Positions 21,660-29,694 of a DNA stretch of 30,347 nt are shown in pieces. The notes below the pieces were generated by a model. The model was not told the DNA's origin, did no database searches, and saw nothing but the letters and a program-made list of their open reading frames with translations. The DNA is taken from IMG/VR virus record IMGVR_UViG_3300049782_000146, positions 1-30,347 of that record, one strand, 5' to 3'. The translations under genes and the position numbers were made by a program. This stretch comes from a virus (taxonomy: Duplodnaviria; Caudoviricetes). How positions within the stretch are numbered: the stretch's first letter is position 1; each line of letters begins with the position of its first letter.

Positions 21660-22991
21660 TCAAGAAGCGGCGACCTTCTTAGCCCATGCCACCTTGTTGT
21701 TAGCGGCGAAGCTTACATACCTGTAGTCGAGTTCGTTCAGGTTCTGCACACGCAAATTCAGATGCTGTGCTCGTGTCAGCGCGTAGAAGAAAGCGGATTG
21801 ATCCACTCCCCAGATTGGGTTCTGTCCTGATGCACCTTCAACCCTGTGATAGTAAGCGGCGACGTAATTGAGCAGGCGGCGGTTTTGTTCCGTTCTTCTT
21901 ATATACATGAGGTTCACGATTACCCGCTTCCAAGGAAAATAATTCCTCCTGGGCCGGATGCGCACGGCGACATCGGCACCGTCCACACCCCTCGCTAGTT
22001 CATCTGCTTGACCAGATAAGCTTACATCTATGTCGCTGATAATAATGTCTGAGCCGTACAGGTCCATAATTGACCTTGCAGCCAAGAAACGCACCGACGC
22101 GAAATATGGGCGCTGATCGGCGGTGTCATGGTGTGTGCTGTAGCTGTAATTGACGGCCAAATCGGGGTGTCGATTAGCTATCCGCTCGCGGACGTCTCTC
22201 GTCGAGGAGGTCGGGTTCACGATGTGAAGGTGAATGGTGCCCCGGTATTTGTTGGCTGCCGCGGATGCAGTGACCGCTTCGGCGAACTTCTCGAAGTATT
22301 TCGCATCGGCAGCGCAAAAGTGCACGGGCGCATCTGGATTGTGGCGGTTGCTGATATCCAACTGCCATTCGAACGGCTTGCCTGCCGCCTCGTTCTCCAG
22401 GTCATCATACGAGCTGTCCTCCCAAGGCAACACAGAAAAGATCGGATGCTGGACAGCGGGGAGCGGAAACTCATTCTGCCCGATGTTATTCCTTGCCTCC
22501 ACGATCAGCCGCGTCGCCTTCTCATGGTGACCTGAGAGGAAGTTTAGTGCGGCACGCGCCAAGATAAACCAAGCATCGTTCGGGAAGCGCGTGGCCCAAT
22601 CTTTCACAAAGCGGCGGTTTTCCGCAAGTGCACTAGGCTCGGAGCTTTCGAAGTTGCTCAGCAGCAGGAAGTTCGCGGACGCTTTCCACAATCGCGTCGC
22701 GTTCTCTGGTGGCCCCAAGATCGCGAGCGTTTGGGTGAACCAAGCCGCGCTCTCAGTGTATTTTCGTGAGTTAAATAGGCGGTGTGCCACTCTGTAGGAA
22801 TGCCAAGCAGTCTCCGCGTCTGCAGGGCTGGACACCCGCCGCACTAAATAGTCGTCGATATCATCGCTTCGGTTTATTTTGAGGTATCTGCCATCTTTCT
22901 CAATGACCGACAAAATCAAGGGTTCAGCCTCCTTGAGCTTGCCAGAGCGAACAAGGTTTATGCCCTCAGCGTAAATCTTAGCTGTGTTCAT
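21660..22991 (-). CDS. TPR-like N-terminus plus GT-A fold glycosyltransferase-like protein (moron)
   Basis: FCAADAKYF, HLHIVNP, YFASVRF, DxD motif IISDID, late WGVDQSAF; visibly lower GC than the structural genes. Confidence 0.65.
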   Translation of the reverse strand: MNTAKIYAEGINLVRSGKLKEAEPLILSVIEKDGRYLKINRSDDIDDYLVRRVSSPADAETAWHSYRVAHRLFNSRKYTESAAWFTQTLAILGPPENATRLWKASANFLLLSNFESSEPSALAENRRFVKDWATRFPNDAWFILARAALNFLSGHHEKATRLIVEARNNIGQNEFPLPAVQHPIFSVLPWEDSSYDDLENEAAGKPFEWQLDISNRHNPDAPVHFCAADAKYFEKFAEAVTASAAANKYRGTIHLHIVNPTSSTRDVRERIANRHPDLAVNYSYSTHHDTADQRPYFASVRFLAARSIMDLYGSDIIISDIDVSLSGQADELARGVDGADVAVRIRPRRNYFPWKRVIVNLMYIRRTEQNRRLLNYVAAYYHRVEGASGQNPIWGVDQSAFFYALTRAQHLNLRVQNLNELDYRYVSFAANNKVAWAKKVAAS

Positions 22992-23221
22992 TTATAATGA
23001 CCGCCGAATGTCCACCGTAACCCGCGCGATGCCGAAGCAGGCGCAGGAATGTGAGGGTATCATAGGGATGTTGCGAGATTGTGGAACTGGCCCTCCAAGG
23101 GAGGCTTTTTCCCAGATGCTGGGGTATGCGCCGCGCATACGGAGCCTGACTGATGCCGAGTAGGGGGAGCGTCACTATGCCCGGCGTGCGCGTGGTGCAG
23201 ACTGTGGTGGGGGGATAGGGG

Positions 23222-23668
23222 ATGAGCGCATTCGTCCGCATCCGACAATGGTTCAGCCGCTTGGTGCACCGACCGGCGGACCTCTTCGATATCGCCTCGG
23301 GCTTTGCCACCACACTTTTCGTGGTGCTCGCAGCATGGAACCACGCCGATCCGCAGGTGTCGCCCAGCATGTCCTTCATCGGCGACAAGGCGCCGTGGTG
23401 GCTGTGGTTCACCGTCATCGGCCTGGCCGCTGCGTGCCAGCCAGTCGCCCTCCATCTGGACGACCCCGACGACCCGCGGCACCCGTTGCTGCAGCCCGCC
23501 AAGTGGGCGCGTTTCATCCTGGCTGGCACGATCGGCTGCTGGTTCTTCATCCTCTACTGGTCAATGTGGCTGAAGCTCGGGCCCCACCACGTCGAGGCCC
23601 TGTACCTCATGATGGTCGGGATGAACGCCTACATCGTCGCGCACGTCCTCTTCCGAGCCCGTGATTGA
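23222..23668 (+). CDS. Multi-pass membrane protein (holin candidate)
   Basis: About four hydrophobic segments; GGGGATAGGGG purine tract before the ATG; first gene of the lysis region. Confidence 0.65.
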   Translation: MSAFVRIRQWFSRLVHRPADLFDIASGFATTLFVVLAAWNHADPQVSPSMSFIGDKAPWWLWFTVIGLAAACQPVALHLDDPDDPRHPLLQPAKWARFILAGTIGCWFFILYWSMWLKLGPHHVEALYLMMVGMNAYIVAHVLFRARD

Positions 23669-24215: not shown

Positions 24216-24473
24216 TTAGTTAGGTCGGTGAAGGCGCTTCGGGATCGGGACCAAGCTGCCGGTGTGAAAAGCCACTTCGAGGCCGAGTTCATCTGCACGA
24301 GCCTCGGACACTACGACAAAGTTTGGTCCGGCTGAGGTCTGGTAGGTAACGACAACGTACCGTGGATCGTCTTCTGTCCTGGGATCGGACAAGCTCTCGA
24401 TCCTGAGAATGCGCGCTAGGCCGTCCGGGAGGACGCAAGTCCTGTCCGTTCCTTCAACAATCTTTAGAGCCAT
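24216..24473 (-). CDS. Hypothetical protein, 85 aa, paralogue A
   Basis: GAGGAG RBS upstream of ATG 24473; similar to 24578-24814. Confidence 0.75.
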   Translation of the reverse strand: MALKIVEGTDRTCVLPDGLARILRIESLSDPRTEDDPRYVVVTYQTSAGPNFVVVSEARADELGLEVAFHTGSLVPIPKRLHRPN

Positions 24474-24561
24474 GCGGCCTGTCTCCTCATGCGAGGAGGC
24501 TGCGGATAGGCGCACAAGCGATAAATGACATTCACTCTCATTAACATTGCGTATTCGTGGC

Positions 24562-24914
24562 CCGCCGCCCGGCGGCTCTACACTCGTGGGATCGGAACCA
24601 GATGACCTTCTTGGAGGGCCTCGTAGATCCCGAGCTCCGCCGCCCGCTCAGAGCTCATGACGACGAAACTGGAGCGGAACGCCACCCGGTACCGGATCGC
24701 CACGAGGTGCGACGCATCCAGCCCCGGACCGGAAATCGTCTCGACACTCAGAATGTGGGCAAGGCCGTTCGACGGCGCCAGTGCTGCGCCGTCATCGTTT
24801 CCAATACGTGCCATGGCACTCACCTGCTCAGAGGCTGGCGGGCCAATGAGCTGATGCGTCCGCTTCCGCATTCACCTTCGTTATTCGCTGCGTAGTGATC
24901 CGCCGCCCGGCGGC
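24562..24914. repeat. 15-bp direct repeat CCGCCGCCCGGCGGC (24562-24576 and 24900-24914) within diverged duplicated leaders
   Basis: Exact 15-mer with an internal palindrome GCCGCC-C-GGCGGC; both copies are preceded by CATTCAC and TGCGTA. Confidence 0.8.
24578..24814 (-). CDS. Hypothetical protein, 78 aa, paralogue B
   Basis: AGGTGA RBS upstream of ATG 24814; shares GLAxILxxE, FVVxSxxRAxELG, GxLVPIP with paralogue A. Confidence 0.75.
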   Translation of the reverse strand: MARIGNDDGAALAPSNGLAHILSVETISGPGLDASHLVAIRYRVAFRSSFVVMSSERAAELGIYEALQEGHLVPIPRV

Positions 24915-25678: not shown

Positions 25679-26221
25679 ATGGCTGAGCAGATTGATAGCG
25701 CGCCCGAGTGGCGCGTCATACCGTCTTTTCCTGACTATGAGGCATCGAGCGACGGGCAGATCCGGCGCCGGACAGTGCCGCGGGCGAAGCCAAATCACTT
25801 CGGCCCAGGGTACGTCAAAAAGACCGATAACAAGGGCGGCTATCTCTACTGCGCCATGACAAGGCCGGGGTGGAGAGGATCTGTCACCGTCCATCGGTTG
25901 GTGTGTGAAGCATTCCACGGACCCGCTCCATCCAGTCAGCACCAGGTCGCGCATAGCGACTGTAACCGCTTGAACAACAGTGCGGCAAACCTGCGCTGGG
26001 CGACGCAGAGAGAGAACGCGCAAGACACTATCCGTCTTGGCAGGCAAGCGCGAGGCGAGCGCAGCGCGAAGGCTAAACTGACGGCTGCGCAGGTCACTGA
26101 AATCAAGCGCCGACGCGCTGCAGGTGAGCCTTATCACCGGCTCGGCGCTCAGTTCTCCGTGAGCCCGCAAGCCATCTTCCACATCGCGCGCGGGCAAAAC
26201 TGGAAGCACATCCCTGAGTAG
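25679..26221 (+). CDS. NUMOD4 + HNH homing endonuclease with C-terminal HTH
   Basis: EWRVIPSFPDYEASSDGQIR (NUMOD4); VHRLVCEAFHG...AHSDCNRLNN..NLRWAT..EN (HNH); AKLT...I C-terminal domain; GGAGG RBS. Confidence 0.92.
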   Translation: MAEQIDSAPEWRVIPSFPDYEASSDGQIRRRTVPRAKPNHFGPGYVKKTDNKGGYLYCAMTRPGWRGSVTVHRLVCEAFHGPAPSSQHQVAHSDCNRLNNSAANLRWATQRENAQDTIRLGRQARGERSAKAKLTAAQVTEIKRRRAAGEPYHRLGAQFSVSPQAIFHIARGQNWKHIPE

Positions 26222-26231
26222 GAGAGACCAT

Positions 26232-27413
26232 ATGCTCGATATCACCCGCTACGACGATCATGCTGGCTATGCGCGGGGCACCCGCGGCGGCCATGGAGGC
26301 AAGGTCGTCACGGTCAAGACCGGCGACGAGCTGAACGCAGCCGCTGCGGCGCGCAGCAAGGAGAAGAGCCCGGAGCCGGTGATCTGGTTCGTGGATGGCG
26401 ACATAACGGACGCCAACACCAAAGGGTCTGCCATCGACATCAAGAAGCAGAGCCGCTGGAGCCTGATCGGCAACGGCACGGCCAAGATCACCGATGTAGG
26501 CGTGCATGTGGCGGATGCCTGCGAGGATTTCGTGATCGGAAACCTCGATATTGCGCGCGTAAACCAGGGCCCGAAGGATGCCATCGGCGTTGAGAAGAAC
26601 TGTCAGATGGGCATCATCTTGCACAATCGCTGCCGCGGCAGCATGCAGGTGGACAAGGACCACTTTGACGGCCTCTGCGACCTGAAGCACAACACTCGGA
26701 AGATCGCGATAATCTTCAACGAGTTCTTCGACCATCATAAGGTTGGGCTGGTCGGATCGAGCGATAGCGATATCGACAGCACCGAGATCACCTGGAACCA
26801 CAATTACTATCACGAGGTGGGCTCGCGCTGCCCGCTGCTCCGAGGCGGCAAGGGCCACTTCTACAACAACTACCTGAAGAACGTGGAGACCAGCGGCTGC
26901 AACATCCGCCAGGGTGCCGAGGCGCTGATTGAGAACAACGTCTTCGAGAACGTGCACGACCCGATCGTCAGCGAAGACAGCAAGACGGTCGGAAAATGGA
27001 ATTTGAAGGGGAACCTCATCGAGAACCCGACCTGGGGGAAGGTCGAGAAGGGTGAGGCTTCGGCGCAGAACGGGGCGAGCACCACCGATTTCCAGGTGCC
27101 CTACACCTACGCGCTGCGCCCGGTCGAGGAGGTGAAGGCCTTCGTCACGACCTGGGCGGGCGTGTTGCTGGACGGGAAGGGGGTGCCGGGGCAGGGGGCT
27201 CCTGCCCAGCAGCCGGAGCCTGAGCAGCCTGAGCCCCAGGTGCCGCAGCAGCCCACGGAGCAAGTGCCTGAGCAGCCGGTGGAGCAGCCCGCCGAGGAGC
27301 CCGTGGAGGTGGTGGACGGCACGGCCATGGTGGCGGCGCTGGATGACATGGCGAAGGGCTTCGCGGACGTGCAGCGGGGCATTTCCGCGCTGCGGAAGGC
27401 GCTGGGCGGATGA
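26232..27413 (+). CDS. Pectate lyase, polysaccharide lyase family 1 (PL1)
   Basis: GYA...TRGGHGGKVVTV, SLIG, KDAI, DGLCD, HHKVGLVG, ITWNHNYY, SRCPLLRGG (RxPxxR), HFYNNY, IENNVFE, PYTY; AGGAG RBS; no signal peptide. Confidence 0.9.
   Translation: MLDITRYDDHAGYARGTRGGHGGKVVTVKTGDELNAAAAARSKEKSPEPVIWFVDGDITDANTKGSAIDIKKQSRWSLIGNGTAKITDVGVHVADACEDFVIGNLDIARVNQGPKDAIGVEKNCQMGIILHNRCRGSMQVDKDHFDGLCDLKHNTRKIAIIFNEFFDHHKVGLVGSSDSDIDSTEITWNHNYYHEVGSRCPLLRGGKGHFYNNYLKNVETSGCNIRQGAEALIENNVFENVHDPIVSEDSKTVGKWNLKGNLIENPTWGKVEKGEASAQNGASTTDFQVPYTYALRPVEEVKAFVTTWAGVLLDGKGVPGQGAPAQQPEPEQPEPQVPQQPTEQVPEQPVEQPAEEPVEVVDGTAMVAALDDMAKGFADVQRGISALRKALGG
27200..27310 (+). repeat. Pro/Gln/Glu-rich linker repeats in the pectate lyase C-terminus
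   Basis: QQPEPEQPEPQVPQQPTEQVPEQPVEQPAEEPVE; recurring GAGCAGCC. Confidence 0.75.
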
Positions 27414-27901
27414 CCCCCGCCCTCCTCCTCACCCTGACCGTGGACCCGGCCCTCGCCTGGATGCAGGCGTTCGGCATCAGGTCAGACGACCGGGCGCGGG
27501 TCATGCTTCTGGCCATTGCCGGCCAGGAGAGTGGCTACAGGCACCGCCGCCAGGTGCCGGTCGCTCACGCCATGGGGCTGTGGCAGTTCGAGCGGGGCGG
27601 GGGCGTGACCGGGGTACTGCGCCATGCTGCCTCGCGCACCGCTGCCCTGTCCGCTTGCGAGGCTCTGCTTGTGCCGGCCACACCGGAGGTGGTGCACCCG
27701 GCGCTCGAGCACAACGACGACCTGGCCTGCGTGTTCGCCCGGCTGCTGCTCTGGACCGATCCCAGGGCTCTGCCGGCGGTGGACGATCCGGACGGCGGCT
27801 GGGAGATGTACCTACGCTGCTGGCGCCCAGGGAAGCCGCATGCGGGCACTTGGGTGGGGCACTGGAAAGCCGCACTGGGTGCTGTGGCGGCGAGCTTCTG
27901 A
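27410..27901 (+). CDS. Putative endolysin (lysozyme/lytic transglycosylase-like fold)
   Basis: LLAIAGQES catalytic-Glu helix, GLWQFE, ARLLLWTDP, YLRCWRPGKP; ATGA overlap with the pectate lyase. Confidence 0.75.
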   Translation: MTPALLLTLTVDPALAWMQAFGIRSDDRARVMLLAIAGQESGYRHRRQVPVAHAMGLWQFERGGGVTGVLRHAASRTAALSACEALLVPATPEVVHPALEHNDDLACVFARLLLWTDPRALPAVDDPDGGWEMYLRCWRPGKPHAGTWVGHWKAALGAVAASF

Positions 27902-27967
27902 CCAGCGAAAGATCACACCTTGTGTCTATCAGTGTGGGCAGCTTGACCGCAGTCGTAGTTGATATAG

Positions 27968-28489
27968 ATGTCAATCGTGGAGATGATCAAGCAGGCCCTG
28001 CGCGATGGCACGTTGCTTCCGTACCTGCCAGTTCGCTCGCGTCGACAGGCGAAGCGGTGCCTGTTCCTCACGAAGCATGCCCACTCACAGCTCACAGATC
28101 CTAATTCTGCCGTCAACATCCTGGTTGGTCGTGGGATGATAGAAGCCGCCCTCACGAAGTGGACACTGGGAGAGACGGTTTATGGTGACCGTAAGGGAGG
28201 GCGCTTTCTTAAGCGCTTAGATCCGCCGCCGCCGGAGATTTGGGAAATCCGCTTGACCGAGCCGACTGTCCAAGCGCGGCTATTCTGCCGGTTTGCTGAG
28301 CCAGACGCGCTCATCCTCACTCATATGCACACGAGACGATATTTAGGTGATCGCGGATCTCCTGAATGGCTTAAGAGCATGGCGGATTGTGCAACCGCCT
28401 GGGATGCTCTTTTTCCCTCCAGCCTACCCTTCTCTGGCAAGGGTATCGCTGACTACGTCACGGAGAACTGCAATGACTTCCCAATCTGA
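27968..28489 (+). CDS. RelE/HigB-like toxin with N-terminal extension
   Basis: FLKRL...EIWEIR.....ARLFCRF.....LILTH pattern typical of RelE/ParE-fold beta-sheet; upstream of an XRE gene. Confidence 0.62.
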   Translation: MSIVEMIKQALRDGTLLPYLPVRSRRQAKRCLFLTKHAHSQLTDPNSAVNILVGRGMIEAALTKWTLGETVYGDRKGGRFLKRLDPPPPEIWEIRLTEPTVQARLFCRFAEPDALILTHMHTRRYLGDRGSPEWLKSMADCATAWDALFPSSLPFSGKGIADYVTENCNDFPI

Positions 28490-28958
28490 GCAGTCGCCGA
28501 TGCATCCAGCCGAGCTCCGTGAATTCGGCCTGATGCGAGTTCGTGATACCGCGTTTTCTGCAGTACAAAAGCTGTGGTTGCGACGGAAGGACGAGGGGTT
28601 AACTCAGAAGGACCTCGCCAGCAGACTGGGGCGCGATCGTGGTTGGGTTTCAAAGAACCTTCGTGGGCCCGGGAATTGGACTTTCCGCATCTTCGGTGAG
28701 TTCGTCCAGGCACTGGATGGCGAAGCGGAGATCGAGGTGTTTGCGTTAGAGGATCCCGTCTCCAATCCGCAGAACTTCAATGCTTACGAAAAATATGCAA
28801 AAACGCCTGTAGCGTTTAAGCCGACCTTGAGCCCAGCAGCTGATGTGGCTGTCGCCAGGTGGAGATCGAGCGGCGATGGTCTCGTGATCGATGGGCCGAC
28901 CACTGCCTCTAAATCGAATGTTTTTCATGTCTACGAGATTAAGGTCAAGCAGTCATGA
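28473..28958 (+). CDS. XRE-family HTH protein (HigA-like antitoxin) with C-terminal tail
   Basis: GGAGA RBS before ATG 28473; GLTQKDLASRLGRDRGWVSKNLRGPGNWT; overlaps the toxin stop. Confidence 0.8.
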   Translation: MTSQSEQSPMHPAELREFGLMRVRDTAFSAVQKLWLRRKDEGLTQKDLASRLGRDRGWVSKNLRGPGNWTFRIFGEFVQALDGEAEIEVFALEDPVSNPQNFNAYEKYAKTPVAFKPTLSPAADVAVARWRSSGDGLVIDGPTTASKSNVFHVYEIKVKQS

Positions 28959-29425
28959 AGGCACCTCGTTTGGATATAACTAGTGTGATCCTTTGCGAAG
29001 AAGTGCGGCGGGAGATTACGACAAAGGATATCCTGCTGGGGGTTTTTCCGGGCGATATTGCGTCGCAGGGGTTCCCTGCGCAGATCCCGGTTGCGTTTTG
29101 GTTTAGTTTTAAACCGAGCGCGAGTGGAAATATGGAATTTGAGCTTCGGCTGCTTGATCAGACAAATGCGGCTCTTATCGAGCTGAAATCTGAAATACTG
29201 GTGGGAGATAACCTCGGCCCAGCCGCCTTTTTTACGCCCCCTTTACGTTTGCAGGTTGTTAAGCCTAGCAAATTTCGTTTGCAGATGAGACAGGGAGGGG
29301 CGGGTTGGAAAACCATAAAAACATTCGGCGTTGAGAAGATCGATCCTGCCAACCCCATCATTGGCTTCATCAAAGGTCACGGAGTTCCGTCTGGCGCTTC
29401 GTCTTCTGATGCAGATGGCGCATAG
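28955..29425 (+). CDS. DUF6941-like all-beta protein
   Basis: VILCEEVRRE...KDILLGVF...FP N-terminal signature as recalled for DUF6941; ATGA coupling to the XRE gene. Confidence 0.65.
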   Translation: MKAPRLDITSVILCEEVRREITTKDILLGVFPGDIASQGFPAQIPVAFWFSFKPSASGNMEFELRLLDQTNAALIELKSEILVGDNLGPAAFFTPPLRLQVVKPSKFRLQMRQGGAGWKTIKTFGVEKIDPANPIIGFIKGHGVPSGASSSDADGA

Positions 29426-29443
29426 TAGCAGGCTGGTCGCGAG

Positions 29444-29498
29444 AAGAGCCGCCCGGAGGGTTGGGACACATCCCGCTAACCCGCCGGGCGGCTCTTTT
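29444..29498 (+). terminator. Long hairpin, probable intrinsic (possibly bidirectional) terminator
   Basis: AAGAGCCGCCCGG-A-GGGTT ... AACCC-G-CCGGGCGGCTCTT ending in a T4 tract, starting 19 bp after the operon stop. Confidence 0.8.
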
Positions 29499-29648
29499 GC
29501 ATTCTGGGCTTGGCCTTCCCGCATCTTCTTCGCACAAGATAACAACGTTGTGCGAGGACCTTACCCGCGTCACCTGATGTTGCGTCTGAAGATACGCCGA
29601 GGCATGTTGCACCGCAGCGCCGGGTACCGCGCTACTTCCGATCAGTGT

Positions 29649-29674
29649 CCCCCGCCCGCCCCTCCGGGCGGGGG
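29649..29674. terminator. GC-rich hairpin downstream of the minus-strand gene
   Basis: CCCCCGCCCG / CGGGCGGGGG 10-bp stem; no convincing U tract. Confidence 0.4.
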
Positions 29675-29694
29675 TTCGGATCAGCTGTCTTGGC

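Follow-up and report, generated by a model that had tools for sequence, protein, structure and literature searches.

We describe three overlapping genes of a tailed phage that form one conserved operon and that probably, by analogy with TAC systems, constitute a TAC-like chaperone-dependent toxin-antitoxin (TA) switch, in which a DUF6941 protein would bind the tail of the antitoxin and stabilise it. The genes lie near the end of the window, by which we mean the whole stretch of 30,347 nt that was analysed (IMG/VR record IMGVR_UViG_3300049782_000146, positions 1 to 30,347), and they encode a HigB/RelE-fold toxin-like protein (gene 1), an XRE-type HTH antitoxin-like protein (gene 2) and a DUF6941 protein that is a candidate chaperone or sensor (gene 3). 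An earlier note on this DNA had proposed such a tripartite module, with a TAC-like architecture that lacks SecB; the analysis presented here combines structure prediction and comparison with two censuses of related loci, one starting from the toxin and the other from DUF6941.

Results

Organisation of the locus

The window is part of a myophage record with terminase, portal, capsid, sheath, tape measure, baseplate and fibre genes; it represents 30 of the 38 kb of its contig, and no integrase match was found among the ORFs scanned. On the plus strand, gene 1 (27968..28489, 173 aa), gene 2 (28473..28958, 161 aa) and gene 3 (28955..29425, 156 aa) are joined by a 17-nt overlap (genes 1 and 2) and an ATGA overlap (genes 2 and 3), which confirms the three overlapping genes of the earlier note. 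The order that it gave, with the toxin followed by the HTH protein and a beta-rich protein of 156 aa, was borne out by the ORFs and the predicted folds, and the cassette is indeed more AT-rich than the virion genes, with a GC content of 56, 54 and 51% for genes 1, 2 and 3, respectively (54% overall), vs 66% in positions 1-20400 of the window and 71% in the gene upstream of the cassette. The linkage of the three genes is kept far beyond chance across the loci examined (see below), and the genes constitute a single conserved operon.

The cassette had been placed between an endolysin gene and a strong terminator, and both descriptions hold in part. The adjoining gene is present (27410-27901), but its identity as an endolysin is only putative; it matches phrog_3108 (function unknown) and has a weak Pfam SLT match (E 0.027). 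The hairpin downstream of gene 3 (about 29439-29500, plus strand) is strong, with a folding energy of -47 kcal/mol and a z-score of -5.18 that 0/200 shuffles equal, and it is the likely terminator of the operon, but its U tract is short, with only four U after the hairpin, and it is absent from a consensus terminator scan. At 27959-27987 there is a promoter-like site, but such sites are no more frequent than by chance (1 found vs 0.9 expected). The sequencing runs listed for this DNA comprise one DNA run, possibly its source, and no RNA run.

Several other features of the window were observed. A second GC-rich inverted repeat, recognised by eye, lies 3′ of the terminator hairpin (29651-29680). 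Between a holin-like gene and that of the putative endolysin, the region 25679-27413 encodes a NUMOD4-HNH endonuclease and a pectate lyase (Pfam E 3e-22), the latter with a Pro/Glu/Gln-rich end. On the minus strand, two ORFs in tandem (24216-24515, 99 aa; 24578-24871, 97 aa), alike by eye and without a Pfam or PHROG match, face against the late genes. A second accessory cassette, also on the minus strand, lies behind a beta-helix tail-spike gene; its two overlapping genes of low GC content (21660-23550; 443 and 190 aa) have weak matches only (TPR-like, sugar transferase).

The toxin-like protein

No Pfam, NCBIfam, PHROG or PADLOC model matches gene 1, and a PDB sequence search with the toxin returned nothing significant; the protein has 95 other homologues, with a best local identity of 43-65%. 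The HigB-like character that had been proposed for it was confirmed in its AF2 model (pLDDT 91.4), in which VIA and Foldseek recognise the RelE/HigB fold. The top of the VIA list consists of 22 RelE-type rows, and the matches include HigB of S. pneumoniae (6af3; Z 10.1, rmsd 2.7, 103 residues aligned) and the TAC toxin HigB1 of M. tuberculosis (7nbu; Z 9.4, rmsd 3.0, 108 residues aligned). In Foldseek, HigBA chains rank best and none reaches E 0.001; an Atlas structure match relates gene 1 to the Gp49 cluster (TM 0.59/0.79). Arg30, Arg104 and Arg123 are invariant in an alignment of 78 sequences, and a strand with Glu93 and Arg95 is near-invariant. Gene 1 encodes a longer protein than classic HigB, with 6-20% identity to solved toxins. 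As judged by its model, gene 1 is a putative toxin with a RelE/BECR fold that stands first in the operon, as in HigBA, and we infer that this predicted mRNA nuclease is active as such.

The antitoxin-like protein, its tail and the operator

The HTH matches of gene 2 lie below curated cut-offs (Pfam HTH_31, E 4e-4; phrog_1373, E 6e-8). An alignment of 24 homologues divides the protein into a conserved HTH core of ~108 aa and a variable C-terminal tail of 54 aa, in agreement with its earlier description as a tailed XRE antitoxin. Matches of gene 2 to the PADLOC models PDC-M64B/C span the HTH only and were set aside.

The tails are barely alignable between homologues and, across the family, are rich in Pro, Ser, Thr, Ala and Val. 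The tail of the window contains 5 aromatic residues and ends in Lys-Gln-Ser; tails beside DUF6941 are 3% aromatic and have an Ala-Ala end in only 2/53 cases. Pooled over 10 pairs, dN/dS is ~0.30 for the tail vs 0.07 for the core, with synonymous sites near saturation and gapped alignments, and the tails appear to be under purifying selection. When core and toxin were controlled for, the similarity of tails was weakly related to that of gene 3 (partial r 0.12, p 0.007, 46 loci); the value for tail and core was 0.08 (p 0.10).

A 16-bp palindrome extends across the start codon of the toxin gene (27959..27974), its right half doubling as the Met-Ser codons. The copy in the window has 2 mismatches and is the sole site there within 4 mismatches. 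The palindrome is at most 3 mismatches from perfect in 52/52 loci with a readable 5′ end (at most 2 in 51), and it was also present in 8/12 more distant loci that were checked. We infer that it serves as an autoregulatory operator to which the antitoxin would bind; on sequence grounds, the XRE-type HTH antitoxin-like protein and the palindrome fit the definition of a HigBA type II TA system.

The DUF6941 protein

Gene 3 scores 27.0 bits against Pfam PF22091 (DUF6941), exactly at the 27-bit gathering cut-off, and Atlas agrees on DUF6941 (0.95; TM 0.66-0.73), so that the DUF6941-like assignment of the earlier note stands. At E ≤ 0.001, 732 relatives were found. The AF2 model (pLDDT 92.8) consists of ten strands without any helix; residues 1-129 are predicted to form an all-beta Ig-like sandwich, and the C-terminal end is of low confidence. 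The best VIA match is the Wzt carbohydrate-binding domain (Z 9.9, rmsd 3.0, 106 residues aligned); further matches in Foldseek and VIA comprise macroglobulin and glycosidase domains (Z near 8), RhoGDI and PDE6D. The Ig-like fold is common and reveals no function.

SecB contains helices. It was not among the gene-3 matches listed by Foldseek and VIA, an absence from a list that alone excludes nothing; the reading of gene 3 as a divergent SecB is ruled out by the all-beta, helix-free model together with the Ig-like matches and the membership in DUF6941.

The closest relatives of gene 3 are 33-39% identical over the full length, vs about 60% for the toxin, and they sit on long branches; by this comparison, gene 3 is seen to diverge much faster than the toxin. 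Similarity searches were correspondingly sparse: a word-indexed search with gene 3 retrieved itself alone, a PDB sequence search with DUF6941 returned nothing significant, the top matches in a viral fold library were only unnamed or uncharacterised proteins, and PADLOC has no model for gene 3. A Pfam-seeded genome search was insensitive (2/301), and tblastn of plasmids with gene 3 of the window, gene 3 of the HicAB-associated locus L036 and the toxin of phage MD8 (both below) gave no match. Longer, fused forms of DUF6941 numbered 0 among 7999 candidates, which is weak evidence.

Co-occurrence of tail and third gene

To survey the position behind the antitoxin gene (slot 3), we examined 104 toxin-bearing loci, namely the window, 21 genome loci, 2 viral loci and the best 80 of 92 metagenome loci. 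We dropped 11 loci without a recognised antitoxin, 7 at a contig edge and 5 with a cut antitoxin, and we removed 13 near-duplicates from the remaining 81, which left 68 non-redundant loci. Eight of the 11 loci without a recognised antitoxin end at a contig edge, and L070 is a full trio; L093 combines a deleted antitoxin with DUF6941, and in L051, which lacks a third gene, the antitoxin is decayed. We changed the class of two loci manually, that of L114 to DUF6941 (by eye) and that of L058 to YbjN (by Pfam).

A third gene is present in 63/68 loci. Slot 3 holds a DUF6941-like protein in 53, a class that rests on the custom profiles A2/A3 built here, a DUF3467-like protein in 7, a family of 217 aa in 2 and YbjN in 1; five loci have no third gene. 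When 13 slot-3 relatives were scanned with Pfam, 5 were over the cut-off, 1 was a weak match and 7 had none; 3/7 DUF3467-like proteins scanned pass the Pfam cut-off.

Where a third gene is present, the antitoxin invariably has a tail (25-59 aa, 63 loci); in the five remaining loci, the tails measure 8, 10, 12, 13 and 35 aa. A tail of at least 20 aa thus occurs in 63/63 loci with a third gene vs 1/5 without (Fisher p 6e-6, uncorrected for kinship). Tailless antitoxins fall at three places of a quick tree in which many forks are unresolved, and one of them groups as sister with a tailed locus that has DUF3467 (support 95). The toxin is intact in the tailless loci L007, L008 and L088, none of which has gene 3, and broken in the likewise tailless and gene-3-less L021; L020, the sole tailed locus without gene 3, also has a broken toxin. 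In L011, a frameshifted DUF6941 gene, which may be a sequencing error, stands beside a tailed antitoxin and an intact toxin. Toxins are incomplete in up to 7/53 DUF6941 loci. Because the tail adjoins gene 3 in the window's family, a single deletion could remove both.

The other occupants of slot 3 were also inspected. DUF3467-like proteins occur in L002, L016, L019, L102, L115, L117 and L122, and the tails beside them are more hydrophobic than those beside DUF6941 (33% vs 24%); directly behind the trio of L016 lies a second pair of Gp49-like toxin and HTH genes (L016:2232-3006). The two members of the 217-aa family (L013:5877-6530 and L084:3477-4130) are 32% identical, accompany tailed antitoxins and have no Pfam, NCBIfam, PADLOC or PDB match. 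PDB sequence searches with the DUF3467-like and YbjN proteins returned nothing significant, and nothing related was found in the literature on DUF3467.

DUF6941 beside other TA pairs

We also checked how often DUF6941 follows TA pairs, as the earlier note had suggested, by means of toxin-independent profile searches of ~400 genomes each, which returned 10/401 for the alphaproteobacterial class, 7/401 for the phylum and 10/400 for the class of genome G638. Of 24 distinct DUF6941 loci, 17 lie directly behind a TA pair, 1 lies behind an HTH gene alone (L046) and 6 have no TA pair; because the search profiles derive from relatives of the DUF6941 protein in the window, the TA-linked share is biased upwards. 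The 17 pairs belong to several TA families: the window's HigBA family (9), a second HigBA lineage (6), HicA-HicB (1, L036, Pfam-confirmed) and an MqsRA-like pair (1, L041, with the MqsA model below its cut-off and the toxin named by eye). In a quick tree built from 37 DUF6941 proteins, the partners of HicAB and of a HigBA pair are sisters (support 97), which suggests that TA pairs have been swapped before the same gene. Because 6/24 loci are without a TA pair, the family has other roles; in two loci (L044:676-1783 and L144:616-1884), DUF6941 lies behind two small membrane-protein-like genes and no TA pair is present.

The second HigBA lineage is undetected by the window's toxin profile. Its antitoxin is extended at the N-terminus; by eye, in 10 sequences, the extension comprises a stretch rich in Ser/Thr and a hydrophobic strand that is often aromatic. 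Because this extension is N-terminal and far from gene 3, it is not a mere intergenic spacer. Gene 3 was present at every locus found in this lineage, which includes the temperate Pseudomonas phages MD8, phi2, MR13 and MR15 (7 records) and a trio on a Burkholderia vietnamiensis plasmid. The trio follows directly after cI in all three phages inspected (MD8, phi2 and MR13). In L135 (601-2685, minus strand), a second-lineage trio stands directly behind a repressor-like gene (by eye), as in MD8, which suggests a prophage immunity region. Rhizobium and Bosea plasmids show the window-like layout.

Discussion

Because tail and third gene co-occur, because several TA families are served and because YbjN, a chaperone-fold family (PMC5398634), fills slot 3 once, we favour the TAC-like reading of the trio. 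The antitoxin would repress the operon at the palindrome, and its tail would make it unstable on its own. Binding of the DUF6941 protein to the tail would keep the antitoxin stable, and the stable antitoxin would block the predicted HigB-type mRNA nuclease. Upon infection, a protein of the incoming phage, or the load of unfolded protein, may compete for DUF6941; once DUF6941 is titrated, the antitoxin would be lost and the toxin would stop translation, by which the lysogen population may be protected. Gene 3 may thus be the chaperone or sensor of an abortive-infection system, as the earlier note had surmised, with DUF3467, YbjN and the 217-aa family as putative alternative partners in slot 3.

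HicAB pairs are among the TA families that are served by the third gene of TAC systems. This gene is also common to the HigBA and MqsRA families, as described in the accessible part of a recent study (PMC11980606), so that service to several TA families is shared with the loci studied here. With the TAC systems known from M. tuberculosis (HigB1-HigA1-SecB(TA)) and from prophages (HigBAC, CmdTAC), the trio further shares the order of toxin, antitoxin and third gene, as far as the available text describes it (10.1101/2024.02.24.581848, PMC11618068), as well as a HigB-fold toxin (Z 9.4 between gene 1 and HigB1), an HTH antitoxin with a variable extension and a putative prophage location. According to the text available for the former study (10.1101/2024.02.24.581848), the antitoxin extension is bound by the chaperone, for which a phage tail protein competes, and removal of the ChAD renders the pair chaperone-independent. 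Because intact toxins persist in three of the tailless, gene-3-less loci and the one tailed locus without gene 3 has a broken toxin, our census matches this rule on ChAD removal. The systems differ in that SecB there is replaced by an Ig-like DUF6941 protein (or DUF3467, YbjN or the 217-aa family) here, in that one lineage here has an N-terminal extension and in that the toxin family here is without a library model. In the same available text, the ChADs described carry aromatic anchors and often a ClpXP-type end, with one HigA noted as lacking such an end, whereas the tails here are aromatic-poor. Because its third gene is not SecB, the trio is not to be filed as a TAC, although it probably behaves like one.

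Other explanations have to be weighed against the TAC-like reading. DUF6941 could be a direct phage sensor and activator instead of a stabiliser, in which case toxin and antitoxin would be neutral as a pair and phage-bound gene 3 would seize the tail and strip the antitoxin off the toxin. The fast divergence of gene 3 would suit a sensor, as would the analogy with the Schlafen protein RorSlfn5, in which an Ig-like domain senses phage according to the available text (PMC13056530); L011 retains toxin and tail despite its frameshifted gene 3, and tail loss following loss of gene 3 fits this scheme too. We nevertheless consider it unlikely, given that the sole tailed locus without gene 3 (L020) has a broken toxin and that a chaperone-fold family, YbjN, occupies slot 3 once. 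Still less probable, in our estimate, is a plain HigBA pair with a passenger, where gene 3 would use the TA promoter and act alone and the tail would be a read-through that couples translation. HigX behind higBA acts independently, according to the accessible text (PMC13384398), and such a passenger would accord with the four unrelated families that fill slot 3, with the barely alignable tails and with the DUF6941 loci that have no TA pair; it is at odds with the N-terminal position of the extension in the second lineage and with the purifying selection under which the tails appear to be.

A chaperone-dependent switch could also function outside anti-phage defence, in the maintenance of a prophage or plasmid or in general stress sensing, or gene 1 may no longer be an active nuclease. 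Many copies are found in bacterial contigs and plasmids, PADLOC models match neither gene 1 nor gene 3, and the length of gene 1 and its low identity to solved toxins point in the same direction. The conserved arginines and the near-invariant Glu93/Arg95 strand argue against an inactive toxin, and the accessory positions in phages, after the putative lysis gene here and after cI in MD8, phi2 and MR13, argue for defence. We regard this as the most improbable of the explanations considered.

The trio also has parallels in other described loci. The HigBA system of phage MD8 (gp52/gp51) is a toxin-first pair followed by the DUF6941-like gp50, as here, and was presented as a two-gene TA in a paper whose available main text does not include gp50 (PMC8508860). 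In the MD8 record, gp50 is annotated as 'putative Ig-domain containing protein'; this HigBA belongs to a different lineage from that of the window, with an N-terminal antitoxin extension. In RorSlfn5, an Ig-like beta-sandwich for phage defence likewise stands next to an RNase, but, as its accessible text describes, it is fused to the tRNase without an antitoxin, and it resembles DUF6941 in fold type (PMC13056530). Type II TA pairs accompanied by a third gene other than SecB are likewise found, as far as the available texts describe them, in the three-component TA-ParA systems (10.64898/2026.10.19.760177) and in Caulobacter higBA-higX (PMC13384398), but the ParA-sensor fusions of the former are unrelated to DUF6941, as is HigX of the latter, a membrane regulator independent of the TA pair. 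Among the accessible main texts covered by our literature searches, none names DUF6941, and those that concern TAC systems, addiction to chaperones or third components of the Ig-like type gave no description of the trio. The accessible parts of the closest studies (PMC11980606, PMC13069673, 10.1101/2024.10.15.618418, 10.64898/2026.10.19.760177) concern TACs or other third components and not DUF6941.

It is possible, although we advance this more tentatively than the TAC-like reading itself, that DUF6941 acts as a chaperone-sensor with an Ig fold and thereby defines a second class of 'tail-addicted' TA defence, one that is independent of SecB. It would serve HigBA (two lineages), HicAB and MqsRA-like pairs, would read a C- or N-terminal extension and would be one of four unrelated folds for the slot, together with DUF3467, YbjN and the 217-aa family; chaperone addiction would then be a fold-independent design for phage sensing. 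The natural tailless variants and the cultured carriers, such as phage MD8 and a plasmid of Rhizobium tropici CIAT 899, make a direct test possible. The TAC systems described so far all rely on a SecB-like chaperone. If Ig-like and other folds do the job of SecB, many prophage cassettes of the type 'HigBA plus hypothetical protein' would be candidate defence systems that are undetected by the PADLOC models used, DUF6941 and DUF3467 would gain a testable role, and the class would be much larger than SecB-based searches show.
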